Assembly (NCBI GenBank): GCA_000091205.1
Contig: AP006483.2
Direction: 5' to 3' (one strand)
Source of the DNA: Cyanidioschyzon merolae
Taxonomy: Eukaryota
DNA: 64,000 bases
In this document: positions 170-56,603 of the stretch, one piece after another
Layout of the letters: each line of letters begins with the position of its first letter
How positions within the stretch are numbered: the stretch's first letter is position 1
Notes under the pieces: model-generated
Told to the model about the DNA's origin: nothing
Databases searched by the model: none
The model's input: only the letters and a program-made list of their open reading frames with translations
Program-made: the position numbers and the translations under genes

Positions 170-1573
170 TTAGGCCGTTCCAAGCCCTGGTTCGGTTAGC
201 ACATCTGCATGATCATTCGGCGAGACCGAATCAGCACACTCGCAGTTCTTTTGTGCACAGGTCTTCTTTTCATAAGGTTTGCGCCGCTTCTGAGCCGCTG
301 CGACTGCATCGGCGCCGCAGGTTGAGGCTATGAGCAAGGGCGCGAGGTTCGGACGCATGCGACCGCCCGCAGATTGGCGCATTCGCGCGCGGAGAATGTT
401 CCGAAACTTGTCTTTGAGATTCATTGGCGTGCGTTTCGGATGGAAGCCCTCCATCTTATTGAGGATTGTCTTCCAGTTCCCGATGCCATAGAGCGCGACG
501 CCTTCGAGAAGGAGCCGCTCCTCTTCCTCGGTAAACCGCAGATACGCCATCCGTTCTTCTTTCTTTTTCTTGGGCTTTTTCATCCGCTGGTCAGCATGCG
601 TTAACGTTGCGTCGCTCCCCGAAGATGGCATGTCGGTGACATTTCCAGGTGGCGATGCAGCCGCGGCGGACGGAACTGCTAATGCTGGAACACCGTCCGG
701 GCGTGCTGCCTGTCCGGCCATATGAGCAGCTCCCATAGGCCAGTACGCTGGATGCGGCACTGTCGGACAGGCCTGGACCTGTGGTGGCCATGATTGAGGA
801 CTTGCATACCAGATCGGCCAGCTCATTTTCGAGCCAGACCCGACAACGCTAGTTGGGACGGCCCCAGTCGGAGGCAGGCACCGCGCCTCGTCGTTCCAGG
901 ACGACTTGGTTGTGGACCAGCCCTTGACATTCCGCTCAGTATTTTGGGCGAATTGCACCGTCTGCCAACAGTTTCTGTCCAGCAACACGGGTGCCGAGTA
1001 GGAGGGGTTGGCGTAAACCACCGGCGCTCGGCAACTCGGTTGTAGTTTCGGTCGCATGTAGGCAGCATCCACGGGCTCAGCGCCCGCTAGATAGTGCCCG
1101 GCGTAGTTCCAGTATACTGGGAGCCTCGATTCGATCCAGTTCGAGCGCATAGCGTGCCTCTGTACGGCAGGATGGTCCAGGTCCCAGTACAGCGAGCCCT
1201 GTGTTGCTGAATTACTCGCAGTGTTTGCTAGAGCGTCGGGCCCAGTCCACCCGCCGCTCCGCTGCGGTGAGGCTGGGTCGTTCCCCGCCACCCACGTTCG
1301 CTGCGTCAGCGTCTTTGCGTCCGAATCGTGCGACCTCGAACCCGCACGCAGTCCGTACGCACCGAGTCGCCCACAGGGCTTCGGTATAGTAGGCTGCGCT
1401 GGAGCGTCTCCAGGCGTTGACGAGGCCAACACGTCTGCAGCTCGAGAACCGCAGTGCGCAGCAGAGCACCACTCCGCCTCCATGTTCAAGTGGTGTCCAG
1501 ACTCGTATAAAAAACAAACGTAGCTGACGTTCTGACGTCCACGCAGCGCCCCAACGAGAACAGGGCACGACAC
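170..1573 (-). CDS. Myb/SANT (telobox-like) DNA-binding protein. A single C-terminal Myb domain follows a basic KKPKKKKEER run.
   Basis: The C-terminal region (~nt 380-560) reads MAYLRFTEEEERLLLEGVALYGIGNWKTILNKMEGFHPKRTPMNLKDKFRNILRAR. This is a typical single-repeat Myb with a telobox-like LKDKFRN motif, preceded by an NLS-like lysine run. The N-terminal half is low complexity, so the true start is uncertain. Confidence 0.55.
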   Translation of the reverse strand: MSCPVLVGALRGRQNVSYVCFLYESGHHLNMEAEWCSAAHCGSRAADVLASSTPGDAPAQPTIPKPCGRLGAYGLRAGSRSHDSDAKTLTQRTWVAGNDPASPQRSGGWTGPDALANTASNSATQGSLYWDLDHPAVQRHAMRSNWIESRLPVYWNYAGHYLAGAEPVDAAYMRPKLQPSCRAPVVYANPSYSAPVLLDRNCWQTVQFAQNTERNVKGWSTTKSSWNDEARCLPPTGAVPTSVVGSGSKMSWPIWYASPQSWPPQVQACPTVPHPAYWPMGAAHMAGQAARPDGVPALAVPSAAAASPPGNVTDMPSSGSDATLTHADQRMKKPKKKKEERMAYLRFTEEEERLLLEGVALYGIGNWKTILNKMEGFHPKRTPMNLKDKFRNILRARMRQSAGGRMRPNLAPLLIASTCGADAVAAAQKRRKPYEKKTCAQKNCECADSVSPNDHADVLTEPGLGTA

Positions 1574-4878: not shown

Positions 4879-5553
4879 CTAGCTCGCCAGACACGACGAG
4901 TTAAAGACGATCCCGACGCCGGATTCAGCGCCGAAGAACGTCGAGTACTCCGCTGTCGAGACATTGAACACGCTTGCCATCACAGATGGTGAGGTTTGTT
5001 CAAAGACGCTTGCCCGGCTCGCAAGGAAATAGACCTGTGGAAGACCGCTCAGATAGTTGGCGAGGAGCACCAACGGTGTCGATGATGTCTCCGGCCCGGT
5101 GATCATGTGCGGCCACCCGGCCGGGATTATCATGAAGCTCCCGTTGGTTATGGGCGTCTTCAGGTGGACAACAGAGCCGTTCGAGGACCAAAGGCTGAAG
5201 GTGCCCGTACCGGAAATGACGAAATAGAACTCGGGTGTATTGGTGTGAACGTGCGGCTCCAGAATCGCGCACTTCTTCAACGTGAAATACAAAGCAGCCG
5301 AGCCGACAGAGTTCAACAACGGATTCCGTGTCCCTTCATATGCCTGTACGGACCCTGCCGCAGTTGAGAGTGCAACCACACCGTCGACAAAGATATTCTC
5401 TACGTACTGAGAAGCCGGAGCTTCCAGCAGCTCTTGGATCGTACCAGCTTGTGGACGCGCGAACGCAGACTGCACGAGTGCTATGACGCACCACAAACCC
5501 CAAAACGAAAGCAAAGTTCTGCGCATCATGATTTTCGTTTTTCTTGACAACAC
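4879..5553 (-). CDS. Secreted cupin / germin-like protein.
   Basis: A hydrophobic signal peptide is present (MMRRTLLSFWGLWCVIALVQSAFA). Cupin motif 1 reads LEPHVHTNTPEFYFVISGTG, matching G(x)5HxH(x)3-4E(x)6G. Cupin motif 2 reads GSFMIIPAGWPHMITG, matching G(x)5PxG(x)2H. Several N-x-S/T sites are present. Confidence 0.6.
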   Translation of the reverse strand: MLSRKTKIMMRRTLLSFWGLWCVIALVQSAFARPQAGTIQELLEAPASQYVENIFVDGVVALSTAAGSVQAYEGTRNPLLNSVGSAALYFTLKKCAILEPHVHTNTPEFYFVISGTGTFSLWSSNGSVVHLKTPITNGSFMIIPAGWPHMITGPETSSTPLVLLANYLSGLPQVYFLASRASVFEQTSPSVMASVFNVSTAEYSTFFGAESGVGIVFNSSCLAS

Positions 5554-5619
5554 AAATATCCGTTCGTGAATGAATTAGGGAAAAGCGTTTCGCGGTATCA
5601 TAGCGGGAGATGCTACCGC

Positions 5620-6330
5620 TCACTCAAGAACAGTGCCCCAGCGCATCCCAAATTAGATCCTCCGCTTGGTGCACCGACACCGCACACGCCGCGTTGGAGG
5701 GTAATCGCAGGCGGCACTGTTCATTGTTGTTCAACTTAATTGTGTTCCGCCCCCAGGTGATTGATATCAAATGGCATTTCGCGGCGCATAGCGGATGCGC
5801 TCATCCTTCGCTCATTCTCAAACCAACGAATTCCAAGCTACAGGTACAGACATGGACGTCAGAGATCCCGCGGAGCCGTCATCGCCGCGTGCCAGAGAAA
5901 TCCGTGCAAAATACGCTTTTCATCGACTATCGAGCGTCGAAGAGGAAGAAGAACAAGAAGAGGTGAGGTAGGCGAGAAAAGATGCTTGCCCGACGGGACG
6001 ATAACGAGACTGTATCGGCCCAGAGGGCACGTGTTCGAGGACTTGTCGCGTCGGTGAGTTCAGGCAGCGGCAATGCACGCAATGAGTTCGTGAACCGGGA
6101 CTTTAGCGCCGCTATGCAGAGTAGACGATTTGCGGTGCTGAAGATGAGATTCGAGGAGCTGACGCCATCGAACTTTATGGGGCAGCCTCTCTGGCTCGAA
6201 GTGTGCCTGGATAAAAAGCCAAGCCGATAGCTAGCGGCCGGTCGAAAAATGCCAGGAGGCGTCTTTGAGCGGGAGTGCACATACACTCTATGGTTGAGGG
6301 ACATTTTTTTGCTTCATTGACATGTGGAGC
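5620..6330 (+). mobile_element. Tc1/mariner-superfamily transposon fossil, copy A, 3' portion. It is truncated near the cupin promoter.
   Basis: The nucleotide sequence aligns with 27060-27600 and 13085-13495. Shared ORF-level similarity is ARVRGLVASVSSGSGNARNEFVNRDF versus ARVRGILASVTSTSGKQRMEFVYRDV. The 5' part keeps a degenerate ...CTDTAHAA... (HDNAPSHTA-like) block. The shared 3' end reads ctctat...ttcattgacatg. Confidence 0.6.
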
Positions 6331-6789
6331 AATCGTGTTCACATGACCGGTGATTCGCTGCAGACGGGTTCAGGAAACGACGGGGCAGCAGGAGAAATGC
6401 ATCGCCAATCGGATGCGGTGGATCGCGGCACCCTTCTGGTTGACAGACCGTTTACGGAAATCAGGGATGCCCTGTTGTACACCATGGGTAAACGCAGTGC
6501 CGTGATCGGTGGAACACCTGTGCGAGGACGCATTTTTGCTATTTATGGATGGCTTTTTTTGCGGATAGTCAATAAAAGGAAGGTATTCTATTGGTTGGAA
6601 AAAGTTCGCTGAAAGACTTGATGCCGTCACTGCGAGTCTGCAAAAAAAGGTCTTTTTTGTCCAAGTCAGTTCTTCTACGCTCAGCAAGCGGATGAAGCGC
6701 ATTTCTCGTTGTCCATATTGTAAAGGCCATGCACCCTAGACGGAAGTTGTTAAACCGCATCAATACGACTGTCTTCGGGTATATGCATT

Positions 6790-7122
6790 CTACTCCATAG
6801 ATTGTTTGACGAATGCTGATACAGAAGCCAAAGATTCTGAACTTTCCGAAACAATGACACGAATGGTGAAGAAGAAACGGGCGCGGAGAAAGAAAAAAGC
6901 GCGCTTCTCTGGGAGATCGTCGGGCGTTGAATGATACACGGCAGGTTCTATCATGTAACGTGACCGCCTATAGCAGGAGCGACGCGTATTCGTCTCGTTC
7001 GATGGGACATCATTCGGGAGAAATCGCAGTCTTCTATGTAGATGCTTAAAGAGAGGCAATCTGCTGCTCGCTAATATGAGAGAAGCGAGCGTGACGAAAC
7101 CATGACCCCGAACGGCAATCAT
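6790..7122 (-). mobile_element. Inverted fragment of Tc1/mariner-like transposase, covering the region around the first catalytic Asp.
   Basis: The fragment translates to ...DVPSNETNTRRSCYRRSRYMIEP...DDLPEKRAFFFL. The mariner equivalent is HELNERQ...R..C..LL.R...GDEKWIFF. It is homologous to 46899-47237 (EAPLNETNTGSSCDKRSRFS...DGLPEKRIFFFI). Confidence 0.55.
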
Positions 7123-9860
7123 ACCGAGTGGGCGCCCAGCATTCTCTCAACGGACAGAGTTGTTGAACGCCTCCGGCTTTGTTGAAGCGCTCTTCATGGC
7201 ATCTCCTTCCAGCACTCTAAAGTCCTGCTATAAAAGAAAACCACATTCCATCAAGAAGAAACGGTGAAAGCGTATGCAGCTGAAACTGGCTTTGATCTGC
7301 TCTTCGTGTCAGCGTATTAGACTTGCTTCCGTCTAGTCAAAGACGTCTCCTCTGTTGCCAAACGCCATTTCTATGTCCAGCGCACGATAGACGGCTCGTT
7401 CGCATCCGTGACACCAAAGTTCTGTGGCAAGTCGCTCGCTGTTACCTTCACCAGTCCTGAACTACTGTATTGCCCCCGAGCCCGTACACGACATCGAGCG
7501 TAGAGGTGCGCTTCGGTCTGTGCGCGTGATCGCGACGCAGAACGGAACAAAAAACCCTGCTGGAATACGCAGTGCATTCGTAGAGGAGGCGCGCTTCAGT
7601 GCAATCGATCATCCAGATCGTCTGAGAATCTAAGAATCAAAGAGATGCGGAGTGTAGCGATCACAAGCGTGACATCCCACCATGTAAAGAACACAGCGAC
7701 AAACGAGATGAGGTAGAAACCATCCGACAAAGGAGAGGCAGATCCCGCAGAAAAACAACGAGGACGAGGAGGGACAGCGATGAAAACCTGTCGGAGCAAA
7801 ATAGTCAGTTTGAAACCACTGTCAAGGTTTCGCTCCGAAAAATGCAGCGTGGGGATTCTGCAAAACAAACCGAGATGCAGAGCGCCATGATGGATAGTAT
7901 ATAGCTTCGTACTCGATCAAGGCTCGCCTAGCTTGCCTCACCATGAAGCGTCATCTCGAGGAACGATTTCTAGACGTTCCGGATGCAGGGCTCCCATCTG
8001 TCCATATTCCCCTGGAAGTTCTCGATCAGACCTTCGTGCGCTAACACAACTGGTGCTCGGCACAGAAGCGGCAGTACGGCCGGGATCGGAGGATCAGCGA
8101 TTTCGGCACGCGCTTCTCAGAATACCATGACGAGTTGCCATGCCGTATCGGCGATGGGCACAATCCACTGCGCAGTTGCCGAAAATCATCAAAGCAATCT
8201 CGAAAACCGTATGCGAGATAATCAAGAGGGTTTCATAGAAAGCACGCAGTGGGCGTTGCAGCCTCACCAGACTGACCCAAACATGAGGAACTTCATGAAA
8301 GCGGCTCTCCAGTTCGGAGATTACACGGGCGTCAGAATGGCTCACGCGAAGGAGCTTTGGCGGCAGTGCATGATACTGCGCTTTGGATCACCATCGGTTT
8401 CGGTTGTGCGGAGGCAAGAAGCTTGGATTCGCCAATTTGTTCAGCGAGCTGGAAAAGGAAACGATCGAGAAAACACGGCGCGAGCTCGTGGTAGCCTATG
8501 GAGCTGGACCTGCGGTACCAGGCGCGCGCCGCACCCCTGGCCCTTCGACGACAGCAAGCAGCAAGTGCAGGCATCGATTGTAACCGATTCTCATCCTTGG
8601 ATTCAGAAGGATCGAACCGCATCACGAGCACGGTCACACGCTGGAACAGGTAGAGAAAATGAACATGAAACGGATCCAGATGCACGAAACGGTAAACACT
8701 AAGATGGCTGAATATCGATTGGTGAGGCAATCGAGATTTCCTGGCTTCGTATGGTGTGATTCCACCAGCAGCGGAGCGCGCGAGCTCGCCATGCACAACC
8801 TCGTGAACGCCTCGATCCACGTCCGGAAATGTCGTGTGTTTCCGGAGCGCCCAGCAGCATTGCATCGAGCGAACTTTCAAGGAAATCACTGAGTATTCAG
8901 TGTGGACGTAATGCTGAACCGCTGAAGAGTCTCGATGAAAAACCAGCGGCCGTCAGAGGTGCATTGGATGCGCATCTAGAGCAATGCAATGGACTGGTAC
9001 GCGTTCGTAATGCAGAAAGGAATGGATTCCCGATATATACAACGAGAAAGGTTCTCTCGGACAATTGGTGATCGCTCACGGTAGTCCATTACTCGAAATT
9101 CCTCTGTGGCTGCTTTCATTGTCTGCAGAGAGGGATCGCATCGCACGTAAGATCAAGAAATTATAGACGAAGCATCCGGGGCCTACTGCCAGCGAATCTT
9201 CATATTCAAATGAAAGTCCATGGAATGGTGGCAGCGGCACTGGCGGTGTTAGATTTATGGAGACTGGAGGACATAAGGCGCAACCATGAAGGCTCCCTCG
9301 GATGTCGATACCAGTCGCGCCGTTCGGGATATCTCGCTCGTGTCCACAAAATCCAACACAGCCTAAAAACCCAGAGCGGGATGCGGCTACGAATATCTCA
9401 CGATAAACGGATGCTGGACGATGAGCCCTGAAGCACCCGACGTGTCTAGATGAGCAGCTAGTTTCTGGAATAGCCCGCTGCCAATCAACGGCGCTATCCA
9501 CATACCTGTGGCCCTGCGAGATGGAGCACCTGGAACGCAGCTCGTTCCTGGAAGTGCCTTGCAACCTTAAAAGTGTACATCCTTGGGCCCTTATCGCAGA
9601 CAAGAGGTAGTTCTTTCGTGGCGACTCGCCTCAAGCGAATGCATATGCCGTAGGTTACTTTATAATCGGGGGTGTTTCTAGAACGGGTATCTCTTGCTGG
9701 GTCGTATGCTTTTTCTGAGCGGAAGCGCACGAGCGAACGTTTCAGGTCGCTGAGGCCTTGGACGCCTCCCGCTGCGACGATAAACGACGCGCGTGACTTG
9801 GCCACAGTCGTTCTGCGCACCCGCACCCAGCTGTTCGCACAAAGCAGCACTGGTGCGGTC

Positions 9861-11189
9861 TCAACGACGACGAGACTCGGAGCGTTTTCCCGCTGTTACA
9901 TGCGAAAGCGCTTCAGCATTACTATCGAGCTTGCTTAGTATCGAGGCAGCAACAGCGTCAATGCGTGCGAGAATTTCAGTTTTCAAGGCTTGCAGGTCTG
10001 CCGGTGTTACCGCCGCAACCGACACGGGCGCAGACTTTGGCACCGGGCGTGAGCTCCGACCAGCACCAGCACCAGCACCAGAACCGGGCGCACCACTCAC
10101 TTCCTCGCCAGCGACCAGTCCGGTATGCACCTGTCTTCGTCGACCGGCTGCACCGCTTGGAGCAGCCCCCGTTGGATGAGAGGTTGCGCTCTGGGTGGTC
10201 TGGGCTTCGCCACTGGCCTGGAGTGGTCCGGCACCAGCAATCGTACCCGCTGCTGTCTGATGTTTCCCGTCGGTGCCCGTTCGCCCATGCGCAGGCCCGT
10301 TCGGTTTCGGAACACCGACACGAGCTGGTCGCCAGCGTGTGCCGCCACGCTCGAGGTTGAGCATCTCACTGGACTGCGTCTCTGGGAAAAACACCTCATA
10401 GAGTCCAGTGCCCTCATCCATACGCAGAATCGTGCACCCCATCCAGGCACGCAGTGGCGCGTAGAAGACCTCGATATCCGTATTCGGGTGTAGGTGTGGT
10501 CGAAGAAGACGTTCGCGCTGCTGAATATGAACTTCAAGTTCTTTTAGCCTCGCGTCCGCAGCGGCAGCTTGCTCCTCGTAGGCAGCAACTTCGGCGCGAT
10601 ATTCCAGCGCCCTCTCCTCGGCTGCCTCTAGAAGAAGCTCGGCGTGCTGACACACCCAGTTCTCCGCTGGATCCTGGTTGTACGCTAGTGTGTTGTCACG
10701 CATGAGACGCACGTCGGCGAGGAAGGCATCCAAACTCGCGTACATGTTTTTGCGAGCCCGTTCCCGGAAGTGGTTCAGAAAAACAGGCTGTTTGATCCTC
10801 CGCCGATAGTCATTGGTGGGCGGAATCCGCGTAAAGTCCACCCCGGTATTCGCCGGACGCGACAAGAGCGTCGCATTCGGCGGCCTCTGCTCCACCGGAA
10901 GTGACCGCGGCACGCGTCGAATGACCAAGCGCACTGGGTCATTGAGCTTCGCCGTGGCCTCTTGGTCGATGTACGCCAGCTCCTCGTTCCGAAGGGCTTC
11001 CTCGATGGCCAGTATCACCCGATTAATACGCTCGCGAGCTTCATCTCGTCGTTTCCGTTGTGCAGCTACCTCTTCGGCCTCAAGCGCCGTTATTTTCGTG
11101 AGCAAGTCGAGGTACTCTTCGTCGAGCCGTTTCCGTTTTTCAACAAAGTCCTCCAGCTTGGTCGTTGGCGTCACCTCGGCAAGTACCAT
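9861..11189 (-). CDS. Bromodomain-containing coiled-coil protein.
   Basis: The bromodomain reads DFTRIPPTNDYRRRIKQPVFLNHFRERARKNMYASLDAFLADVRLMRDNTLAYNQDPAENWVCQHAELL. It fits the consensus F..P...DYY..IK.P.dL.tI..k...Y.....F..D..Lm..N...YN. Charged coiled-coil segments lie on both sides and the C-terminal third is low complexity (A/G/S/T-rich). Confidence 0.5.
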   Translation of the reverse strand: MVLAEVTPTTKLEDFVEKRKRLDEEYLDLLTKITALEAEEVAAQRKRRDEARERINRVILAIEEALRNEELAYIDQEATAKLNDPVRLVIRRVPRSLPVEQRPPNATLLSRPANTGVDFTRIPPTNDYRRRIKQPVFLNHFRERARKNMYASLDAFLADVRLMRDNTLAYNQDPAENWVCQHAELLLEAAEERALEYRAEVAAYEEQAAAADARLKELEVHIQQRERLLRPHLHPNTDIEVFYAPLRAWMGCTILRMDEGTGLYEVFFPETQSSEMLNLERGGTRWRPARVGVPKPNGPAHGRTGTDGKHQTAAGTIAGAGPLQASGEAQTTQSATSHPTGAAPSGAAGRRRQVHTGLVAGEEVSGAPGSGAGAGAGRSSRPVPKSAPVSVAAVTPADLQALKTEILARIDAVAASILSKLDSNAEALSHVTAGKRSESRRR

Positions 11190-11234
11190 CTTGCCCCAGT
11201 GGAAGATACACTCTGCCGTCTAGCGCTCTAGGCC

Positions 11235-11835
11235 CGACAGACCCCGACGCCAAGCCCTGTAACGCACAGTACGGCGCACGGGATGGTGTGCGCTGCGCCC
11301 CCGACGCAATTCTCAAAATCGCTGTGCGGAATTCGGAGCGCAGTGCCCCCGATGCACAGCCCTGAATCCCTGGGGGAATTCTCAAAATCGCTGTGCGGAA
11401 TTCGGAGCGCTGTGCCCCCGATGCACAGCCCTGAATCACTGGGGGGGAATTCTCAAAATCGCTGTGCGGAATTCGGAGCGCTGCGAACCCGATGCACCGC
11501 CCTGAATCACTGGGGGGAATTCTCAAAATCGCTGTGCGGAATTCGGAGCGCTGCGAACCCGATGCACAGCCCTGAATCCCTGGGGGGAATTCTCAAAATC
11601 GCTGTGCGGAATTCGGAGCGCTGCGAACCCGATGCACAGCCCTGAATCCCTGGGGGAATTCTCAAAATCGCTGTGCGGAATTCGGAGCGCTGTGCCCCCG
11701 ATGCACAGCCCTGAATCCCTGGGGGGAATTCTCAAAATCGCTGTGCGGAATTCGGAGCGCTGCGAACCCGATGCACAGCCCTGAATCCCTGGGGGGAATT
11801 CTCAAAATCGCTGTGCGGAATTCGGAGCGCTGTGA
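11235..11835. repeat. Tandem minisatellite, 70-71-bp unit x ~8.5 copies, immediately upstream of the bromodomain gene start.
   Basis: The unit gaattctcaaaatcgctgtgcggaattcggagcgctg[ct]g[ac][ac]cccgatgcacagccctgaatc[ca]ctggggg starts at 11376, 11447, 11517, 11587 and so on. Each unit has two EcoRI sites and an internal inverted pair gctgtgc/gcacagc. The whole unit is conserved with no unique spacers. Confidence 0.9.
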
Positions 11836-11899
11836 ATGGTATCCCTCGTAGAGATGCTATGGATGCTATTCTTAAGAGTGATGGTATGAATGTTGACGA

Positions 11900-13495
11900 T
11901 GATTCTGCTTCCCGTGTCGCTCGCAAACGTTCGTGCGATTGCAGCAGCGCGTTCCATGTGCACAGCTACGTATCCGGTTGGAGATTGTGCGAGACATTGC
12001 AGGAGTCTCACGTGCGTGCATGTCGTCAGGCTTGATGACGAATCGTTTACCATGGAACATTGCTGCATCTTACGGACGTTCAATGCAATGCTGTCCAATT
12101 CCCGCTGAGTGTAGTCGACTGCTTTTTCGCAGCGTTGAGCAGGAGATCGAAACCGCTGTAGGATGTACCCGATAGATCGTAGCCGAATCGCTTGTCGGCT
12201 ATATTTTCCCTACTGGAGCGTACAAGCAGGATTGCATTCATCATTCAGGAAGGCCATACCGCAGTACTCAGATGATTGAGGAACAATGAAACAAAGAAGT
12301 ATCTGCGCTCTACGTCAGAAACTGATTTTGTCAAAGACTGTTTGCTGTCCATGGGACAAGTAACAACGGTTGATCATCTTACGGGACGCAAAAGCGACGA
12401 TCGAAGCAACCACGCATGTCACGGTTTCGCAGAAGCTGGCGCGTGCGGACCCGAAAACCCTGGGATACAATCGCCAAAAAAGTTCTAGTTCACGCGCGGC
12501 CATCTTCCAACGAAATCTCAACGACAGCATTCCTGGAACTTTGCGACCGGTGTGAAGCACAGGAGCATCGGTTAGTTCTTCCAGTTGATGACGCTTGATT
12601 TGGCCGAAACAGTCAGAGCGTATGTGGGTAATCGCGGGGCGCGGAGCCCGTTATATGAAAGATCGGACTCGAAAAGACGGACATCATCATGTGTTCTAGC
12701 TGCAGAGGATCTTTTTGGCGGCCTCAGTTTCGCAATTGGAGAGGACTCGTACACCACCGACCACTTCGTCGATTCAACGAAGACGTTTCCCTGGAATCTG
12801 GCGACGTCCTTCTATTGGACAACGTTTCATTTGACCATTCCCATTGGGTTCGAGCTTTTGCCGATCCTATCGGGGTAGAGGAGCTTTTCATTCCTCCGTA
12901 ATCTCCGTGGCTCAACCAGATTGAAAGAGTTTTTTCTAGTCCGAAACATAATGATCGCTCCACTGAGCGTTTTGCCGAAGCGTTCAGCTCACGATGTCAA
13001 ACCAGGGCGCATGTCGTCATTGTTGCACAGGTGCTTCTACCTCCTGCAATGACTTCATCTATGGGCATAAAGGAGCCAGTTCATTCAAAAAAAATTCAGG
13101 GATGAGCTTCGGTATACACTAGAGAAGGTCGAGATGGAGAGAGGGCAGCGGAGCGCTTCGGCGACAGGAACGCATTCAGAGCCGACGGAGTAGCAAATGG
13201 TAAAAAAGGCACGAGTCCGAGGAATCCTTGCATCGGTGACTTCAACCAGCGGCAAACAACGCATGGAATTCGTGTACCGAGACGTCAACGCTGCTATCTG
13301 TACCAGAAGATGCGTGGTTCTGAACACGAGCTCAGAAGAGATGACGCGATCGCACTTCGCGGTGCAGCTTGCAAGGCTCGAAGCGTACAATCGAAAACTG
13401 AAGCCGGTAGCATTCCGCCGGTCCGCAGAGGCGAGAAGACGACTGTGAGTGAGTACCTATATTGACCCTCCATGGACTTCAAACATTTTTCGTTG
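11900..13495 (+). mobile_element. Tc1/mariner-superfamily DNA transposon, decayed near-full-length copy B.
   Basis: Over ~1.5 kb the sequence aligns with copy C (25950-27600). Degenerate transposase motifs are in mariner order. The first-D region reads ...NEISTT...CDRCEAQEHRLVLPVDD (~12500-12600). An HDNAPSH-like block reads LLLDNVSFDHSH (~12815). A PYSPDLNPIE-like block reads ELFIPP*SPWLNQIE (~12890). The frame is broken by stops and frameshifts, and the 5' boundary is approximate. Confidence 0.6.
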
Positions 13496-15012
13496 TACTC
13501 TACATAGCAGAAGCCGCTGGATGCTCGAATGCTGTAGGCCGCGGGGCACGAGGCTGTAGATCCACTGTCAAAATGTTCTCGTTGCCCGAATGCCAGATCC
13601 GACTTCCAGCCCAGCACCACGGTTAGATTCAAGGAGATTTCAGACAATTGATCGTTGCACGACTACCAGACCAGACATTCTATCGGGTATCACGGTCAGA
13701 TTCAGGGATTTTCCAGATACAGAGCCTACCGTGGGTATCTACTGTGGCATTGGAAGCTCCGCTTTGAATGCCATACGGAGACAGCACGGCTTCACAGGAA
13801 GCGCGTCGGGTACTCGAATGTTCATCGCCAAGGCACGCAGTACTCGGGTACGCTACACGCCAGTTTCGCATCAGGCTGTGAGGGCGGCTTCAGAGCGCCC
13901 GACGTGCTTATCATATAGACCTCAATACAGCGTCCAGTTGACGCTCAGGGTGCAGTAACTAGGGTATGTGTGTGTTATGCTTCCCGCTCTGCCAGACACG
14001 ACGTGTCCAGCCCGAACGTCCCAGTTGACCGTGGCGTTCGTGCTGTTGAGAACAAGGCATGGATGCACTTGGGCCACGCCTGGGCCACCTCGAAGCAGTC
14101 CCTTTACCAGTGCGCCCGGGGCACGCAGTTGGTCCCAGCTGCACGTCACCGCCAGCGCCAGAGGCTTTGGAAACTTTTACTGGTTCGTAACGCAATGCTG
14201 CATATCAACAGTTCTCCCGTATGTTCTGGCGACTTTGGGTGCAAGATGCAAAGCCACAAGCCCACAATGACGGATGCACGAGCTGCGAATATGCATCGAT
14301 ACATCTGAACATCCTCGAGTGCGTTCACCATGGCCGCATGACCCTCATCGCGAATGCTGAAACGGCATGGCAGCGTTTGCCACAGAGTTCAGCAGCAGTC
14401 TGGGACGATAGCTTTTGCGCTGGCACTTATGCCATCACGACGCCAAGGTGTGCAAGGCCCCGAAAATGCCGGCGGTTCTCCGCGCCACTAGGAATCCGTT
14501 TCTCGACCGCATGACGAGAAAGAGAATCCGAAAACGAGCAAAAGAGGCGGCTGTACCTGCGCCCTCTGGTCACTGTCGTTTATGGTTAGAGGCATGCAAT
14601 TTCGATCGCGTTCGGGGTGTTTCGGCACCGGTCCGGCCCTGAGCAAAACCGATGCCAGCTGTCTGCAGCAACTGCCCATCATGGTATTCAGGTCTGCATA
14701 ACGAAAAACATATCGTTCGCATAGAAACCTGCGTAGCATACCAGGCTCTAACGCAACTCCCGATACGGTATGGATCTGCATAGCTGCTATTCGACCTGGA
14801 CGGCACTTGCGCAATATTCCCCACGGTAACGAACCGAAGCGCGCAAGACCGCAGCGATCAATGTGAAGAGGCCATGCACCGGGCTATCGCGTTTCCAGGC
14901 ATTTTCCACGTTCACACGTTGCAGCACAACCTGATTCGTCTCGAAATCGAATGATCGTGTCCGGTGCTCCAAGCAATCAGCATGCTGTAGTGCACAGTTC
15001 GTACAAAGCGGA

Positions 15013-16215
15013 TCAGCGGTGCACCTCGCTGATCCCGAATGCGTCGCTCTGCTTCACGCGCTCCAGCACTGCGGTGAGCGCCTCCTCTGTGGCGAGTGGG
15101 CCGCTAAATGTGCTCAGTTTCCATTCGGGGTGTTCTTGAATTACGGCCCGCACGTGCTCATGGGAAACACTCGGCAGGTAGGCGCTCCCGCACCATTCAG
15201 CGAGTTCGATGTCGTTGTCGTCGTCGATCATGGCAACGGCCTGGTCCCTAGTACAACCAGTTCGCGCTAAAATGTATTCGGCTACATTGCGCTTCCCAGA
15301 GCATCCGGGAAACACATCCAGCTTTCCCAAATTGGACGCTGTCTGCAAGCCCAGCGGGGTGACTCGAGCCCGGATATCCGCGGTTGCGGCCTGCATGTGC
15401 TGCTCGGTGACGACTCCGTTGACCGCGCTCGTCGCTGCTGTCGACGACGCAGGGCGTTCCCACTGCACGTTCCTAGACCGCAGCGACGACGCGATGTCGA
15501 CGCGGAATGCAGTGTAATATTCGCGGGTGTCGAGCATCCATCCAGCAGTCGCCAGCTCGGACGCCGCTTGCCACAGTGGTGCAACGGGGTCAGGGTGCTC
15601 GTCACTGCTCCCATCGACCGCCGTGGACGGGTACGGGCTATCCTGCTCCCGCGGTACCACGCACTCGTCAGCTGCACACCAGGGGTGCGGACCAGTCCAC
15701 GGCTCGAGCCGTCGCGCCCATGTGACGTCCTCAACGTACGCTGTGTCCGCTCGCCACATCAGACGTCCGCCGTTCTCCCACGCGATAGCGTCGACCACCG
15801 GCAAGAGCGGCAGTCGGCGGTAGAGGGTGCTGGAGCGCGCTCCAGTCAACAGCGCCACGAAGACGCCGTGCACCCGAAGCGTGTCCACGAGTTCGACAAC
15901 GCGTTCGCTAAGGTATCCGCAACCTTTGGTCAAAGTCGGGAGCACCCTACAGGGAACGATTGTCTTCGGTAGGGTGTCGTAGACGAGGTTGACTCGACCG
16001 GAGACTCCGTCGTCCGGCTCGATTCGAATTCCATCACTGAGCTGGTCCTCATAGTGTATGAGTGTCCCGTCCAGGTCACTGAAAAGCGCAAGCGCGTACT
16101 TGCGAGCGTTCTGCTTCCGTGGTACCTCCATGTACCCCGCAGCGCAGACGACGGTGAGCGGTGTGTGTCCCGGTGATCGAGTCCCAGCGTGGCGTTCCAG
16201 CCACTCCAGCCTCAA
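15013..16215 (-). CDS. HAD-superfamily phosphatase, subfamily IIB (Cof or sucrose/trehalose-phosphatase-like).
   Basis: Motif I is LFSDLDGTL (DxDGT). The C-terminal block is GKLDVFPGCSGKRNVAEYIL...AMIDDDNDIEL, with the conserved K and the DD of motifs III/IV. A large cap insertion typical of HAD-IIB lies between them. The likely true start is the internal Met of MEVPRKQNARKYALALF. Confidence 0.55.
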   Translation of the reverse strand: MRLEWLERHAGTRSPGHTPLTVVCAAGYMEVPRKQNARKYALALFSDLDGTLIHYEDQLSDGIRIEPDDGVSGRVNLVYDTLPKTIVPCRVLPTLTKGCGYLSERVVELVDTLRVHGVFVALLTGARSSTLYRRLPLLPVVDAIAWENGGRLMWRADTAYVEDVTWARRLEPWTGPHPWCAADECVVPREQDSPYPSTAVDGSSDEHPDPVAPLWQAASELATAGWMLDTREYYTAFRVDIASSLRSRNVQWERPASSTAATSAVNGVVTEQHMQAATADIRARVTPLGLQTASNLGKLDVFPGCSGKRNVAEYILARTGCTRDQAVAMIDDDNDIELAEWCGSAYLPSVSHEHVRAVIQEHPEWKLSTFSGPLATEEALTAVLERVKQSDAFGISEVHR

Positions 16216-25949: not shown

Positions 25950-27600
25950 AAGGACAGGGTGCACGGGTACGGAGTATCTGCAGCTTTCGCTGGTACAGAG
26001 ACGCACGCGCTTTAAGTGGCATCGGATGCGCCAGGTCGTTGACCCTAAGCTTGCCTCGTTGGCGTTGCGCAACAAGGCAGTGGCCGCCGCTGCTACGCAC
26101 TGCGTTACGTTCCTTGCTGTACGCCATGCTTATAGTCTTTCGTTTCAGTCTTTTCCCCTTTTCTGGATGTAATCGAGTGCTTTTTTTTGTAGTGCATAGC
26201 AGGAGATCGCCATCAAGATGCAATGTACTCTATAGATCGTAGATGGATTGCCTGAAGGATACATGCTTTACTGAATCGTGCAAGGAGGACTGCATACCTC
26301 CTTAAAATGAGTCGTATCATAGTACTCAGATGGTTGAGGAACTCTGAAAGAAACAAGTATATGCTCTCGCGACAGAAACCCGATATTCCTGCCGGCTGAT
26401 TGCGGTAAACGGTAGTGAAGCGGTTCCTTGAACATCTTACAAGCAGCAAAAAGCGACCATTGAGGTCACGATAAGCGTCTCTGGTCTTGTCCAGCTCGTT
26501 CGAGTGGTCCTCAAATCACTGGAATACAGTTGCAAAAAAGTCCAGTATCACGTACGGTCATCTTCCAGTGAAGTCGCAACGACCGCGTTCCTGAAATGCA
26601 GCGATCCATACGAAGCACAGGGACGTCGCCTTGTTTTTTTCGGTTGACGATCGTTGCTTCGGGCACACTGGTCGGAACGTATATGGGTACTTGCGTCTGC
26701 GGAGCTCGTTCCATGTGCAATCGAACCCGTAGAGCGCGATATCATCATCTGTTCGAGCTGCAGTGGATTCATTTGACGGCTTCAGTTTCGCTCACAAAGA
26801 AGGTTCATACAACAGCACCAACCACGTTGTCGAATCATTGAAGACTTTTCCCTTGAAGTCTGGCATCGACCTTCTATTCGACAACGTCGCATTTCAGCAT
26901 GCAGCTTGCTTCAGATCTTTTGCAGATTATGTTGGGGTAGAGCTGCTGTTCATCCGTCCGTACTCCCGGTGGTTCAGTTCCGTCGAAAGAGGGTTTTCGA
27001 TCGCGAGACACAATGATCGATTCACTCGGCGAATTAATGATAACCGATGGGCATACAGAGTTCCGTCGATTCGGTGAAATAAGAAATCCCAGGGAAAGGT
27101 ATGGGCGTGCAAGTCGGGGATCCCGGCGGGCGGTCATCGCCGGCTGCCCAAGAAAAAAAACGAAAATATCCCGTTCTCACCGACCATCGAGCGAAGAAGA
27201 GCAACTGTCGAAGAAGACGACGCAAAAAAAGGGAGACAGATGAGAGAACGTGTTTCCCCGACGGGTCGAGGACGAGACTGTAGTAGCACAGGAGGCATGA
27301 ATTCGGGAAATCCTTGGAACAGTGCGTCCACTCAGCAGTAATGCACGCAAAGAGCTCATGAACTCAGACCGCAAAGCGCTTTCAACATCAGACAATGTTT
27401 GGTGCTGAAGACAAGACCGGAGGAGCTGATGCGAGCCAACTTCGTGCGGTAGCTTCTCAATGTCGAAATGTACAAGGAGAAACAAAAACCGACGAGAGGT
27501 TGCCGGTCGAAAACGGCTAGGAGGCGTCTGCGTCTGGGCTTCCATGCACTCTATATTATTGTGAAACGTTGTTTGTTTCATTGACATGCATGTAGTGGCT
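25950..27600 (+). mobile_element. Tc1/mariner-superfamily DNA transposon, decayed near-full-length copy C.
   Basis: It is collinear with copy B. The HDNAPSH-like block reads LLFDNVAFQHAA. The PYSPDLNPIE-like block reads ELLFIRPYSRWFSSVERGF. The first-D region reads KHRDVALFFSVDD. TIR-like ends are agtactcagatggttgaggaac...tgaaagaaacaag (5' side) and cttgtttgtttcattgacatgcatgtagt (3'). The frame is broken. Confidence 0.6.
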
Positions 27601-29086: not shown

Positions 29087-31252
29087 CTAGTCAGTGTGCA
29101 GCGCATCAGGCCATGAAGTGCTTGAAGCGACTTGCTGAAGCGGATCGCCTCCAGCTGCTTTGCTATAACCGATGAGCGAGGTGGAAGCGCGAGACGCCCA
29201 TACCCCTTGGACAACGGGACCGCTCGGTGCGGTTACCACGTTACCGTCTGCGGTACGCAGCGCCAGAAAATCGTCGTCGTTCAACGCTTGCCGCGTGGAT
29301 GCAACTTGCGCGTGCCCCGGGTCGTCGTCAGCTGGGAACGCTTTGCGCACGCTCGCATCACTCGCTTCAGCATTCGTGTCAGGAGGCGTCGTCTGGCTCC
29401 CGCTAGGGACCAGTTTCGGAACGGGAGCGTGCTCTCGGTGTAGCGTCTCCCCCTTAACCACGGAATGCGGTTCAGTGTCTGCTGAATACACTGGTGGCGA
29501 CTTGAGAACACCGCCTAGCTCCGTACTCGTCTCCGTGCTGGCGGGATGCGACGATGTCGCAGAGGCGTCATCCTCGGCGATATCCAGATCATTCTCCAAC
29601 GCTTGAATGCGTGCGAGTCTTCGCGAACGCTCATTTTCTAGAAATACCTGGCTTTTCTCCTGCCATGCCTTTTTGGCAGCAACCGCTTGTGCGGCACATG
29701 CTGCAACCTCGGCCATCGCTGCCGGTACCTGAACACCACACTTGTGAAATGCGAAAATAACCTCAGCAGCAAAGTTCAGCGCATTCGTCTGGCGGCGAGC
29801 AGGCCCCGTGCGCTGCGCCACTGCATGCTTGGAGGCGTCACGTTGGCTAGGCATCCCGCGAGTCTTGTTTGGTTTTCTTGCATAGAGCTCATCCACGCCA
29901 TCTCGATCTGCGGCTACTTTTCCCACAGGTCTAAAGCCGGCCAGTGAGGCCACGTTGCCGCGCAGCTGATCTGCTGCGTCGTGCGCTTTGCGCACTTCCG
30001 TATCGACTGCGGCAGCTTCGCTGGATGCATTCGCAGACGAGATCGCATGCGCAACCGTCGTTGGACTTGGACTCGGGAGAAGCGCGCGAATCTCCGCCTG
30101 AATCGCATCATCCTCCGGCAGCATGCTTTGAAGCGCTCGAAGCACTAGATCACAGGAGTGCTTCTGTTCGATGTACGGGTCAACTGGCTCCTCGCGGAGA
30201 CGAGCCAGTTCCCGCTGCTTCCACTGCTCACGTCGACGGGCTGCTTCCGCCTCACGCCGCTCTTGTCGAGCTTGCCGTTCCTGCTCCCACCAGAGCCGCT
30301 CATTCTCTTTCCATTGGCGGTCTGATTCGCGAAACGAATCCCACGCCGACTGTATCTCCTGACGCAACGCAGCCATTCTTGCATGCAGCGACTCTCGATT
30401 GACGGGCCCAGCAGCAGCCTCTACCTCTTCGACTTGTCGATCGATGCGTTTCCGTAGCTCGTCCAGTTGGTCGCGCTGGCGATCCAGGTCGGTGCGGGCC
30501 TTGTTCAGCGCATCGTCGAGTTCGCGACGCTGAGCTTCAAGTTCTTCCCGCGCAAGACGAAGTTTTTCTACTTGTTCGCGTCGGCTTTCGTGTTCGATTT
30601 CCGCTCGGCGAGCTTCTTCGCGTGCGTGGATCCGCAAGTAGGTGAGCTCTGAAATGAGCCGTTTCTCATCAGAAAGGCTCAGTGTCGAGTGCGCTTGCGC
30701 TCCTTCAAGCTCTGCGATGCGTGCGTCGACTTCTGCTACGGAGCGGTACTTTCGCGTTACAGCCGGCGCACTCGTTTTCGGCCCTGATGCAGAAGTGCTC
30801 TCGCGCAAACGCTCCTGCACAGCACGCTTTCTGTCCAGGAGCTCGCGCCAGCGCTGCTGCGCTTCCTGGAAAGCGGCCTTTGCCGATTGCAGTTCAGCCT
30901 GATAGCGTTCTCGTATCGCCCGCACTTGCTGTCGCGACTTTGCCGACTTGGAGAGCTCTTGTCGAATGCGATCCACCTCAGAAAGTTTCTCCGCCTCCAG
31001 CTTCTTGATCTCGTCAATACTCGGGCGCGGGTAACGTTTTACTCGGGTGTGCGAAGTACCTTCTTGCAGAAGTTCACCTCGAGAGCCAGCAGCTGGCGTC
31101 GCATCAGGCACCGACGTCAGCGCTGCCGTCTTCGCGTTCTCAGCACCGATTATCGGAGCCGATGGCCACTCGGACGGCTCCATCATACTGCCTGCTTCCT
31201 GCCGACTAAACAAGATCCCCGTCCAGAAGCAAGCAATGAGTAAACCTGCCAC
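29087..31252 (-). CDS. BFR1: Charged coiled-coil protein, Bfr1-like (nuclear segregation / mRNP protein family).
   Basis: Long E/R/Q/L heptad segments are present. Bfr1-like landmarks are IAELEGAQAHSTLSLSDEKRLISELTYLR, EEPVDPYIEQKHSCDLVLRALQSML and YARKPNKTRG...ALNFAAEVIFAFHKCGVQVPAAMAEVAACAAQAVAAKKAWQ. Confidence 0.45.
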   Translation of the reverse strand: MAGLLIACFWTGILFSRQEAGSMMEPSEWPSAPIIGAENAKTAALTSVPDATPAAGSRGELLQEGTSHTRVKRYPRPSIDEIKKLEAEKLSEVDRIRQELSKSAKSRQQVRAIRERYQAELQSAKAAFQEAQQRWRELLDRKRAVQERLRESTSASGPKTSAPAVTRKYRSVAEVDARIAELEGAQAHSTLSLSDEKRLISELTYLRIHAREEARRAEIEHESRREQVEKLRLAREELEAQRRELDDALNKARTDLDRQRDQLDELRKRIDRQVEEVEAAAGPVNRESLHARMAALRQEIQSAWDSFRESDRQWKENERLWWEQERQARQERREAEAARRREQWKQRELARLREEPVDPYIEQKHSCDLVLRALQSMLPEDDAIQAEIRALLPSPSPTTVAHAISSANASSEAAAVDTEVRKAHDAADQLRGNVASLAGFRPVGKVAADRDGVDELYARKPNKTRGMPSQRDASKHAVAQRTGPARRQTNALNFAAEVIFAFHKCGVQVPAAMAEVAACAAQAVAAKKAWQEKSQVFLENERSRRLARIQALENDLDIAEDDASATSSHPASTETSTELGGVLKSPPVYSADTEPHSVVKGETLHREHAPVPKLVPSGSQTTPPDTNAEASDASVRKAFPADDDPGHAQVASTRQALNDDDFLALRTADGNVVTAPSGPVVQGVWASRASTSLIGYSKAAGGDPLQQVASSTSWPDALHTD

Positions 31253-31471: not shown

Positions 31472-31698
31472 GATCGATCCATCGATCCATTTTCTCATCG
31501 GCAAAACGTTTCCCTAGGCCAGCGTTCTCCGATTATGCGCATTTTTTTTCTTTCTTTTTTTGTGTTATTTTTTCAGTGCGCGGTATCGATCCATCGATCC
31601 AAAGATCCTCCGGCAAAACGTTTCCCTAGGCCAGCGTTCTCCGATTATGCGCATTTTTCTTTTCTTTCTTTTTTTGTGTTATTTTTTCAGTGCGCGGT
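31472..31698. repeat. 113-bp tandem duplication (x2) in the 5' region of the Bfr1-like gene.
   Basis: tgatcgatccatcgatccattttctcatcggcaaaacgtttccctaggccagcgttctccgattatgcgcattttttttctttctttttttgtgttattttttcagtgcgcggt is repeated at 31584. Each copy ends in a long polypyrimidine tract followed by cag. Confidence 0.85.
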
Positions 31699-34640: not shown

Positions 34641-37600
34641 ATGGGTTGTCCACGTGACATGCGCTGTTTGCTTCTATTCGGGAGAAGCATCTGGGTGCTG
34701 GTCGGCGCACAAGAACGTCTGTCCGAAACAGACCCATGTGCTTGATTGAACGTGCTCATCGATGCGAGTTGCGCCTCGATACTTTTCGCAGGGAAGACGG
34801 TTTCTTCGTGGAAACGAACTTTAACCACAGGAAGCTACTGGATGGAAGCCTCGTCAGTACGAATCGTACCGAAAGGCGTGCCTTTGATTCTGTCCATGCA
34901 CATGAGAGCGAAACCATGCAGGGATGCCCAGCATCATGTCTCATCTATGGGGAGCAATACCGCTTCGTACGTGATTCGATGGGTACGCGCGTTGTCGCCT
35001 GTGCTGCGGCGCGTGAACCTCTCCGGAGCTGGAAGCCTTGCCAGGAAATCTAGAGCTCCAGCTCATGCGCGCGGCATGCTCCACAATCCATAGAGATCAA
35101 GATAGCCATCGCTGATCATGGCAAGCACGCTCATCCCAACGAAAACGCGATGCACCCAAAAATGCAGAGCGCTTCCGTTCCTGTTCACAGAAGGAAGCGA
35201 TGGTAACGGTGTAGGAACGCATTCGTCAGTTCGAAATGCGTTTTCTGGTGTACCGAGGCTGTGCGCCTGGATACGAGCGGTTTTGCGAGGCAACGCAGCA
35301 CATCGCAGATGCATCTACCTGATAGAGAGGCGTCTCCGGTCACAAGCGCGAGTGCCAGAGCCATTCTCGAGGCACAAGTCCTCCCTCCGTTCGGTTTGGC
35401 GGAACGAATATGCGGAAACCTGGAAATCATCGCAGAGTCACAGCCGGGATGCGCCCTTGACTCCAAGTCGGCGAAGGCGGCTTTCGTGTACTGCGCCTCG
35501 GTCAACGGAAAGCGAAACTTGCATGGAGCGAGTGACTTTATTGGCGCCTCTGCCGATTGTATGCTGTTCTCGTGGATGTCTGCGCATGTCCAGCACGAGC
35601 GCATAGCTACGATCGGACGCGCTGCTAACGCAAGTCGGGCCATGCGCCTGCCATGAAAAATGGCATGTGCCCGACCCGTCTCTCTACACCCGTGTCAGAT
35701 TAAAATGGTAGCGTGGATTACTTGCTTTTTTCCAGCTACTGGATATTTTCTCGGAACGGGTTTTTAGATGTACAGCCTCGAGATTCGAAATGCGGCAGTA
35801 AAGGTTTACGGATTCATAGCTAGTTTGAGGATTCTCGCTCCTCTTGTGAGAACGGCTTCTTTAACTCTCTGCCGCTTGATTTCGTTCCGTCACATGAATC
35901 GAGGTGATTCGTGATGCCATCGAAAAAGCGTTGATAAAAACATCGACATCGGTATCCTATTCTTGCGTGCCCGTCTACGAGCACTCCTTGCATGTGGCAT
36001 GTTCAACTTGTTGATTTTTGGAGTTCTCGATGCTTTTGTCTCAGGGCAACTCATGGGCGCAATATTTCGCGTCACTGGATTATCGAGACAAATACGCAAC
36101 GTCGTCTCTAGGCGCTGACCTCACAAGTGCATGATGAAACTTCACTGGACTCTTGATACGGCATAATCGATTCCGTTAGAGCGACCGATGCTCCGCTCTT
36201 TGTAGTCATTGACAAGGCGCCATTCGACAGCAGTATGATACTTGTCTGATCCGACAAAGAGGCTGGTGCTGCCGTGTTAGCCTTCTCAACGAGCGCAACT
36301 GAGGCCGCCAAATCAATACATCCCAGCTGGAATAGATTACGATCTCATCGTTCTCTGTCGGTTCGATCATACAAACGACGGGTCCCTTTTCTACGAATGC
36401 GCATAGACAGTCCGGCAATTTCATCGGGTAAAAGTCTCATCGACCGAAAAAAACAGTTCGACGTCCCACTGCTGTATTCGGATGGCGACGTTCCAAGAAA
36501 GCTGCAGCTGCGATTTCGATGGGAAGGGGCCGTGTTTGAAATAGAACCCTTTTTTGCAACTGTATCCGAGTCTTTTCTGGACCATACGAACTAGCTGTTG
36601 AGAAACAGAGACGCCCTTGCCGGCCACTATCGTCGCTTTTGCTTTCCCATAGGTGATGAACAGGTCTTTTTCTACCACTGACAACAAGTGCTCTTAGACA
36701 GTCCCAGTTTTTGGTGCGGAGCGCATATGCTTGTTTCTTTTATTGTTCTATACTTATCTGAGTACAGTGGTATGACGGAACTGAATGAGGAATGCGGTCC
36801 TCCTTGCAATGTTCAGTGAGGAAGATATCCTACATTCAATTCGTCTACCATCGATAGGGTAAATTGTTTCTTGATTTGGATGCCCTGCTATGCACTGCAG
36901 AAAAACATTCGATTACACCCAGGGAAGGGTAACATAATTGAGTTGAAAGCGTATAAGACGCCCGGCCCCCTGACCGTTTGCATGGAAAAATGATTGTGGA
37001 CTTGGGCTTCAGTCAACGCAGTGACTACTTCCAATAAAGTATGTGTCTGGGGTTCGTACGATGAGGGAGTACACGGATCGAAATTTTTCGACATGTTCTC
37101 TATCCCAGGTTTTCCTTCAGGTAACTGCTTAACATGGACAACATCCCGTTCCACAAATCCTATAGCGCATAGAACAGCTTGCTTTTGCATGCGCAGCGTA
37201 TAAACTAAGCGCTAAGGGGATCTCCCCGAAGAAGTCCGTGATCAAAAGGCACCACAACAGGCGCTTAGACTGAAGAGCAGATCCGGGCCAGTCTTCAGTA
37301 CTCTTTTAGGACGTACACTGAGCCAGGGAGCGAGCCTTCATGGACCATAGGGTGACACTCGATGGATGAAGTGCTATGAGCACCCCGGAGCGCACCTGAC
37401 CTCAGCCAAATATCACTGACACAGAAGGCGCACCAACGGCATCTACAAACAAGATGAAAATGGCAAAAAATATTAATCACAACGAACCTCTGTGGAGCAA
37501 ATTCGATGACAACGGCTGAAAGCCGTAAAAGACTAACTCGCCCGCTGCCATGAACTTCCTTCGATTGCTGACAAAGGTACCGGGGAAACACGGGAGAGCA

Positions 37601-42874: not shown

Positions 42875-43190
42875 GATCCAGTTCGTACATGCACCATGCG
42901 TGTTACAACTTTAGCGGGAAATATGTAGTTGCGTGCGCGAAACCGCTTCCGCCGATCTAGTTCGTACATGCACCATGCGTGTTACAATTTTAGCGGGAAA
43001 TATGTAGTTGCGTGCGCGAAACCGCTTCCGCCGATCTAGTTCGTACATGCACCATGCGTGTTACAATTTTGGCGGGAAATATGTTGTTGCGTGCGCGAAA
43101 CCGCCTCCGCCGATCTAGTTCGTACATGCGCCATGCGTGTTACAATTTTAGCGGGAAATATGTTGTTGCGTGCGCGAAAGCGCTTCCGCC
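42875..43190. repeat. Tandem minisatellite, 79-bp unit x 4, between the divergent capping-enzyme and TBCB genes.
   Basis: The unit gatc[ct]agttcgtacatgcaccatgcgtgttacaa[ct]ttt[ag]gcgggaaatatgt[at]gttgcgtgcgcgaaaccgc[ct]tccgcc occurs at 42875, 42954, 43033 and 43112. Confidence 0.9.
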
Positions 43191-43388
43191 GATGTACGCG
43201 CGTCGGTGCTGTGGCGACGATTGCGGCCCCGAAGCCAAGCGGCGCTCGCCGAACAACAACAACAAGCGCACCGCACCGCATTCGAGACGCGATCCCTCTA
43301 GCTTGCTAGCGCAGACCACGACGCTGGAAGAGGCGGCACGCTCGCAGCGAGCGACGGGCTCTCGGGCTGGCCTCTCACTACAGGCAGT

Positions 43389-56289: not shown

Positions 56290-56603
56290 CTATGATGCAA
56301 TGCAGCAATCCCCAATGTATGATGTCCATTATGATCCAAGATTGAATCAAATGGACTCAAGTGCGAACGGGTGGCGATCTATGATGCAATGCAGCAATCC
56401 CCAATCTATAACGTCCATTATGATCCAAGATTGAATCAAATGGGCTCAAGTGCGAACGGGTGGCGATCTATGATGCAATGCAGCAATCCCCAATGTATAA
56501 CGTCGATTATGATCCAAGATTGAATCAAATGGACTCAAGTGCGAACGGGTGGCGATCTATGATGCAATGCAGCTATCCCCGCATCCATCATATCCATAAT
56601 GAT
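56290..56603. repeat. Tandem minisatellite, 89-bp unit x ~3.5, 160 bp upstream of the thiolase start.
   Basis: The unit tatgatgcaatgcagcaatccccaatgtat[ga][at]cgtccattatgatccaagattgaatcaaatgg[ag]ctcaagtgcgaacgggtggcgatc occurs at 56290, 56379, 56468 and (partial) 56557. Confidence 0.9.

Follow-up and report, generated by a model that had tools for sequence, protein, structure and literature searches.

[quoted passage not shown]

A block of tandem repeats lies in the 5' intergenic spacer of a bromodomain gene of Cyanidioschyzon merolae, and the question it raises is what kind of sequence this is and whether its length matters to the gene beside it. We considered this question on a window of 64,000 nucleotides (contig AP006483.2 of assembly GCA_000091205.1), which is the whole stretch of DNA analysed and to which positions refer unless another contig is named. 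[quoted passage not shown] The bromodomain protein, CYME_CMA025C (442 aa; 9861-11189, minus strand), is 100% identical to BAM78745.1, and two other proteins of the window match C. merolae 10D BAM78754.1 and BAM78759.1 exactly. An earlier note on this DNA, made from its letters alone, had already read the ORF as a bromodomain protein starting with the ATG at 11189, and both points hold, with a PF00439 match at E=2.5e-9 and a start that agrees with those of the orthologues. The latter are found in Cyanidiococcus yangmingshanensis (75% identity) and Cyanidium caldarium (49%), and all matches of the protein belong to the Cyanidiophyceae. A trypanosomatid origin, to which the long ORFs without introns might have pointed, is rejected by these matches and by the identity with 10D proteins. 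The fungal transcription factor matrices against which the note proposed to search the unit are the wrong reference, because the host is a red alga. C. merolae serves as a minimal eukaryotic model, the promoters of which are essentially uncharacterised (PMC12770821), and in the sole published mention of CMA025C that we found the gene appears as reciprocal best hit to Gcn5 (PMC10158995). Inside the coding sequence, a hexanucleotide run (GGTGCT)n at about 10080-10110 (5783-5839 in the environmental contig L005), encoding a Gly-Ser/Gly-Ala run, is also variable between strains, and the protein has 442 aa in 10D vs 446 aa in environmental alleles, which carry a GSGS insertion.

The head-to-tail array of a unit of about 70 bp is real. 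Tandem Repeats Finder (TRF) places the high-identity array at 11308-11836, with a period of 70, 7.6 copies, 95% matches and a score of 937, and its repeat structure is found again in a self-BLAST of the window. When units are anchored on AATTCTCAAAATCG, seven full units of 69-71 bp start at 11308, 11377, 11448, 11518, 11588, 11657 and 11727, and a partial unit of 39 bp, from 11797, closes the array; the total is about one copy fewer than the 8.5 originally counted. Every unit holds two GAATTC, as had been described, and the array contains 16 of the 31 EcoRI sites of the 64 kb window. Variation among the units amounts to six substitution columns (positions 35, 37, 39, 40, 51 and 62) together with a G-run that is 5-7 long, where about four variable positions had been reported. 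Two main unit types, CTGTGCCCCC and CTGCGAACCC, are distinguished at positions 35-40 and give rise to a weak higher-order period of about 209 bp. The GC content of the unit (0.59) is about the same as that of the surrounding 2 kb (0.59).

The high-identity array begins about 118 bp from the ATG of CMA025C, not 46 bp from it, and reaches to about 650 bp upstream. The earlier placement of its edge at 11235 survives in part: a degenerate partial unit of 18 nt, GCGCTGCGCCCCCGACGC (11290-11307), matches unit positions 31-48 and forms the gene-proximal edge of the array, with a local alignment score of 26 that was reached by 2 of 500 shuffles and is significant, whereas 11235-11289 cannot be counted as a copy, the repeat-like trace at 11242-11259 being marginal (12 of 500 shuffles score as well). 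The distal partial unit stops at GGAGCGCTGTG, and the array has both its ends in one and the same GCGCTG-containing part of the unit. A unique spacer (11190-11289, minus strand), presumed to be the core promoter and/or the 5' UTR of CMA025C, separates the array from the ATG and is identical in L005 and in three further contigs (L006, L007 and L017). The array is in the 5' intergenic spacer of the gene, but the first 118 bp upstream of the ATG are free of it, so that the reading of an occupied core promoter is unsupported. A mapped TATA box or transcription start site (TSS) exists for no endogenous C. merolae promoter (PMC12770821), and the two Logan contigs that end here (L009 and L017) terminate at repeat-variant branch points, so their ends give no TSS.

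The number of copies differs between strains. Using a 29-mer of the unit, we searched metagenome contigs and obtained three matches, each of them at the orthologous locus and flanked by sequence about 98.8% identical to that of the window; the confinement of the matches to this locus means that the unit is a single-locus sequence, and its sub-motif is absent from the rest of the 64 kb window save for one chance match with two mismatches. In environmental contigs that share 98.8-99.7% identity with the window, the array has 1.6 or 5.5 copies. The count is 7.6 in 10D, 5.5 in L007 and 1.6 in both L005 and L006, where the metagenome values come from short-read assemblies and the 1.6-copy alleles are the least certain, as they could be collapsed (an assembler typically enters a repeat, crosses it once and leaves it). 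The length polymorphism for which a comparison of strains had been suggested is therefore found among near-identical strains. It is accompanied by rearrangement of the units themselves, the variants at positions 35-40 and 51 being ordered differently in 10D and L007. The AGTGCC and ACCG unit types are nevertheless common to these two alleles, and the array with its variants therefore predates the split between 10D and the environmental strains (divergence of about 1.2%) and was reshuffled later. Of the recent expansion or concerted evolution that had been proposed, turnover with reshuffling of variants is borne out, but a very recent burst is not, the variants being common to strains.

Could the array be an artefact of assembly, with a true copy number of one, or could it encode tandem small-RNA genes or a repeat peptide? 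We find either scarcely credible. The array does break short-read contigs, four of which (L001, L002, L016 and L017) end at or beside it, but such breaks are as expected of a true repeat, and at least 1.6 copies are present in each of four independent assemblies, which speaks against the single real copy that the note had named as fatal to its claim. Both 10D and L007 have at least five distinguishable variant units, and the array, at 530 bp, would fit in a single read of the 10D genome, which we take to have been finished with Sanger reads. In the contig Ga0078972_1002689, the 70-bp unit is present in 1.6 copies (L005) and the 89-bp unit of another array of the window in 5.3 copies (L022), the fewest and the most respectively, and a contig that is short at one array and long at another argues against simple or systematic collapse. 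ORFs of 120-128 aa cross the repeats on both strands, but the period of 70 is no multiple of 3. An RNA gene array was rejected, as Rfam gave no match to the array either at the gathering threshold or at E<=1 and ARAGORN found no tRNA gene; neither a known RNA family nor an extra-stable fold, by which a small-RNA gene cluster would be recognised, is seen. The inverted pair GCTGTGC...GCACAGC, on which a hairpin had been proposed, is present in the unit, but its stability is no better than that of shuffled sequence (DNA folding z of -1.1, -1.5 and -0.4, with 8-35% of shuffles folding at least as well), and a special hairpin or cruciform was rejected on this basis. A scan for bacterial-type promoters and terminators, which is inapplicable to a eukaryote, gave nothing relevant.

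The distal side of the array raised another candidate origin, in which the repeats would be sub-terminal repeats of a transposon-like element and would have arrived with it. Beyond a unique spacer of 230 bp (11837-12066) lies a decayed transposase relic of the DDE_3 type (IS630/Tc1-mariner-like; 12067-12976, plus strand), recognised by PF13358 at E=1.1e-9 in a frame covering 12773-12976, in a Pfam scan of 11837-15013 made on X-masked translations of the three plus-strand frames. The relic family is dispersed, and self-BLAST finds copies about 68% identical at 26129-27588, 36247-36957 (minus strand) and 5828-6324, that is at least three to four in 64 kb. Up to the next gene, which encodes a HAD-type hydrolase (15013-16131), the intergenic spacer measures 3.8 kb in 10D vs 1.2-1.4 kb in Cyanidiococcus, an excess of 2.4-2.7 kb that the presence of the relic helps, in part, to explain. 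C. merolae has also been reported to carry an interspersed element of 3.2 kb in 253 copies (PMC1955436), and we would guess that the relic family may be related to this element or to the reported 'bacterial-like transposase' elements of the species. Proximity, a lengthened spacer and a known interspersed element are, for all that, outweighed by the alignment of three element copies, in which homology begins at about 12067, outside the array. The array is missing from the other element copies, no terminal inverted repeats were found when looked for at the element, and the identity between element copies (about 68%) is far from that between units (95%). Sub-terminal repeats of a transposon should lie within the element boundaries and recur in its copies, and the 70-bp repeats do neither; no further unit is present in the window, apart from the chance sub-motif match, and the metagenome scan returned this locus alone. 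An origin of the array in a mobile element thus appears largely refuted on sequence grounds, and we regard it as highly improbable. In the same interval, an ORF at 13197-13448 (plus strand) with the RuvC-III-like string 'FVYRDVNAAI' was considered as TnpB/Fanzor-like and rejected, having neither Pfam support nor recurrence in the element copies, and the resemblance is probably due to chance. On the other side of CMA025C, 4.3 kb of 10D DNA (5530-9860, compared with 11314-16195 of the Cyanidiococcus contig L015) is without detected homologues and includes fragments of the interspersed element.

Comparison with relatives shows that the array is restricted in lineage. No array is present upstream of the CMA025C orthologue in Cyanidiococcus (L003/L015 and L004) or in Cyanidium (L014), and the upstream DNA does not align. 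A progenitor of the unit in the upstream DNA of Cyanidiococcus was sought and rejected, since nothing aligns, and even L003 and L004 cannot be aligned with each other there. Over 21 kb of Cyanidiococcus we found a single long-unit array (95 bp x 2), which lies about 304 bp 5' of the HAD gene of L015, together with 21-bp repeats situated 307-420 bp upstream of the Myb gene of the same contig. The promoter-proximal repeats of L015 lie at 7235-7420 and 15774-15888. No such tandem arrays were seen in 21 kb of the more compact genome of Cyanidium.

From these observations we conclude that the repeats are probably a single-locus hypervariable minisatellite, or VNTR, 5' of CMA025C, which is resized by slippage or unequal exchange and the effect of which on the gene, if any, would be mild. 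The identity of the array as a minisatellite is well supported: it consists of head-to-tail copies of a unit within the range of about 10-100 bp, its copy number at one locus varies between strains (as seen in short-read metagenome assemblies), and it contains interspersed variant repeats whose order differs between alleles. Such an array would have originated by a tandem duplication of upstream DNA, some 70 bp long, and a start at short direct repeats, by slippage or unequal exchange, would fit the position of both ends in the GCGCTG-containing part of the unit. Growth, shrinkage and reshuffling of variants would then have followed by replication slippage or unequal recombination. The human minisatellites MS32 and CEB1, which are hypervariable and lie beside meiotic recombination hot spots, resemble the array in their interspersed variant repeats, reshuffled between alleles, and in their large length changes; unlike them, the C. 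merolae array shows no evident polarity of variation along its length in three alleles, and there is no recombination map of C. merolae. A sexual cycle has been described for the Cyanidiophyceae (PMC13353863), and meiotic unequal exchange is therefore possible.

The array is one of five of its kind in the window, as had been stated, TRF having found four further long-period arrays. These are an array of 107 bp x 2.3 (1731-1978), 248 bp 5' of the ATG of a Myb-domain gene (170-1483, minus strand); one of 112 bp x 2.0 (31473-31698), 287 bp 5' of the ATG of the ORF at 29087-31186 (minus strand); one of 79 bp x 4.1 (42872-43193), 196 bp 5' of a gene for a CAP-Gly protein / tubulin-folding cofactor B (43389-44162, plus strand); and one of 89 bp x 3.3 (56289-56580), 181 bp 5' of an acetyl-CoA acetyltransferase gene (56761-58077, plus strand). 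All five thus lie about 119-287 bp 5' of an ATG, and the adjoining genes are real. Random placement in the 37 kb of intergenic DNA gives a chance of about 0.13 per array and placed all five so in 0 of 20,000 trials, with a distance threshold picked after the data had been seen and a sample of one 64 kb window. The clustering of arrays near promoters, five out of five, is therefore strong but provisional. Copy number varies in this set too: the 79-bp array has 4.1 copies in 10D vs 2.1 in L008, L018 and L019, and the 89-bp array has 3.3 copies in 10D, 1.3 in L020 and L021 and 5.3 in L022, while the 107-bp array is near-constant in the two sources that cover it (2.3 in 10D vs 2.4 in L005). The five units have no sequence kinship and share only trivial 7-8-mers; an apparent common 10-mer, GATCCAAGAT, was rejected, as it is exact in the 89-bp array only. 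Upstream of the Myb gene, the 107-bp array of 10D is unrelated to the 21-bp repeats of the Cyanidiococcus orthologue. Tandem repeats of the C. merolae genome are covered by routine TRF masking (PMC11050394), and we found no paper on promoter-proximal minisatellites in Cyanidioschyzon. The CMA025C array would thus belong to a class of sequence-unrelated minisatellites situated about 120-290 bp upstream of start codons and variable in copy number. Most simply, a promoter-proximal bias of this kind could arise if promoter DNA broke and recombined more readily than other DNA, or tolerated duplications better, and selection for multiplied regulatory modules would also fit the five-out-of-five pattern.

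The nearest analogues of the array are the variable promoter tandem repeats of yeast and the promoter-proximal VNTRs of humans. Variable tandem repeats in the promoters of Saccharomyces cerevisiae were reportedly described by Vinces et al. in 2009. In yeast, most of these repeats have short units, are A+T-rich and exclude nucleosomes. They resemble the C. merolae arrays in lying a few hundred bp upstream, in their strain-variable copy number and in the many genes affected, and differ from them in that the units here are of 70-112 bp and the 70-bp unit is 59% GC. Among human promoter-proximal VNTRs, the INS VNTR, MAOA-uVNTR and 5-HTTLPR have measured allele-specific effects on expression. Like the C. 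merolae array, they are minisatellites that lie upstream of genes, have units of tens of bp and occur as multiple copy-number alleles with internal variant repeats; a measured effect on expression sets them apart from it.

Alternatively, the array might be a functional cis-regulatory module in multimerised form, in which each unit would carry candidate factor sites and the copy number would set the strength or inducibility of CMA025C as a heritable tuning device. We regard this as possible, though rather unlikely. The array adjoins, on its proximal side, about 100 bp that must presumably hold the core promoter and/or 5' UTR, and a change in copy number would alter both the count of any factor sites facing the core promoter and the distance from the start site to more distal DNA. 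Tandem duplication of promoter DNA necessarily multiplies the sites that it holds, and this would apply to all five arrays of the window. Each unit has an internal order, with two direct GGAATTC-N4-7-CGCTGTGC sub-repeats, at a spacing of about 21 bp, and one inverted GCACAGC, besides a telomere-like unit described below; such order is not needed in a purely neutral sequence, and it is because of this order that a regulatory role is kept under consideration, the putative sites being the GGAATTC...CGCTGTGC pair and GCACAGC. The unit variants common to strains indicate, moreover, that the array is older than the 10D / environmental split and has been retained since. Against such a role, near-identical strains cover a range of copy number of about 5-fold, the G-run and positions 35-40 vary freely among units, no motif is common to the five arrays, and Cyanidiococcus and Cyanidium have no array where the gene itself is conserved. 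The GC content of the unit also separates it from the A+T-rich, nucleosome-disfavouring tuning repeats of the yeast type. That strains tolerate between about 1.6 and 7.6 copies speaks against a strict need for any particular length. Because near-identical strains span this range and the sister genera are without the array, a mild or null effect on CMA025C is more likely than a required regulatory role.

The junctions between units deserve separate mention, as they resemble the telomere. Every junction (11441-11799) reads (C)TG5-7AAT, and four are exactly TGGGGGGAAT (11511-11520, plus strand, with further exact copies starting at 11581, 11720 and 11790). Plant telo-boxes are a widespread promoter element of particular gene classes, in which, as once per 70-bp unit here, a single telomere-repeat unit stands in promoter-proximal DNA; unlike them, the present motif is confined to one array in 64 kb and its G-run varies in length. 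The telomere repeat of C. merolae is AATGGGGGG (PMC1955436; PMC13353863). The array might therefore recruit a telomere-repeat-binding protein of the Myb type, in the manner of clustered plant telo-boxes or of Rap1 sites in yeast, or act as a breakage-prone interstitial telomeric sequence. Each junction does present about one full telomere unit, all nine telomere-unit 9-mers of the 64 kb window lie within the array, with one other G6 run in the window, and G6-AAT is retained in all units of L007. Yet this resemblance was noticed post hoc, three of the seven junctions of 10D have G5 or G7 in place of the exact motif, and the motif is not a general promoter element, being absent from the other four arrays and from the other upstream regions of the window. 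In L003 and L004, G6 runs are nearly absent. An interstitial telomeric sequence would have at least two consecutive units; here the AATGGGGGG-type unit always stands singly, once every 70 bp. Either role is in our opinion very unlikely. A broader conjecture, which we hold to be improbable, would make promoter-proximal minisatellites a genome-wide, fast-evolving class in C. merolae, generated at promoter hot spots of breakage and recombination in the sexual cycle and serving as heritable tuning knobs of transcription; at CMA025C, a chromatin-reader gene, copy number would determine the amount of telomere-binding Myb-type protein brought to the promoter.

For the CMA025C array by itself, the outcome is mostly one of clarification, in that the repeats form an ordinary minisatellite of a red alga rather than a core-promoter element of a fungus. 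If long-unit VNTRs prove to cluster about 120-290 bp upstream of ATGs genome-wide, they would provide polymorphic markers for strain typing and for recombination in the sexual cycle, and would allow a tractable test of repeat number against expression, given efficient homologous recombination at the native locus. Two further observations concern other genes of the window. In the JGI contig L010, positions 1-1313 are joined to window position 56661 and contain an alpha/beta-hydrolase/esterase gene (PF20434, PF07859), which extends, on the 5' side of the thiolase gene, to within about 100 bp of its ATG and replaces the 89-bp array and the epimerase-side spacer; the junction reflects either a true rearrangement at the array or chimerism of the assembly. 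In 10D a single cupin gene (4879-5529, minus strand) separates the Myb and bromodomain genes, vs two in Cyanidiococcus.
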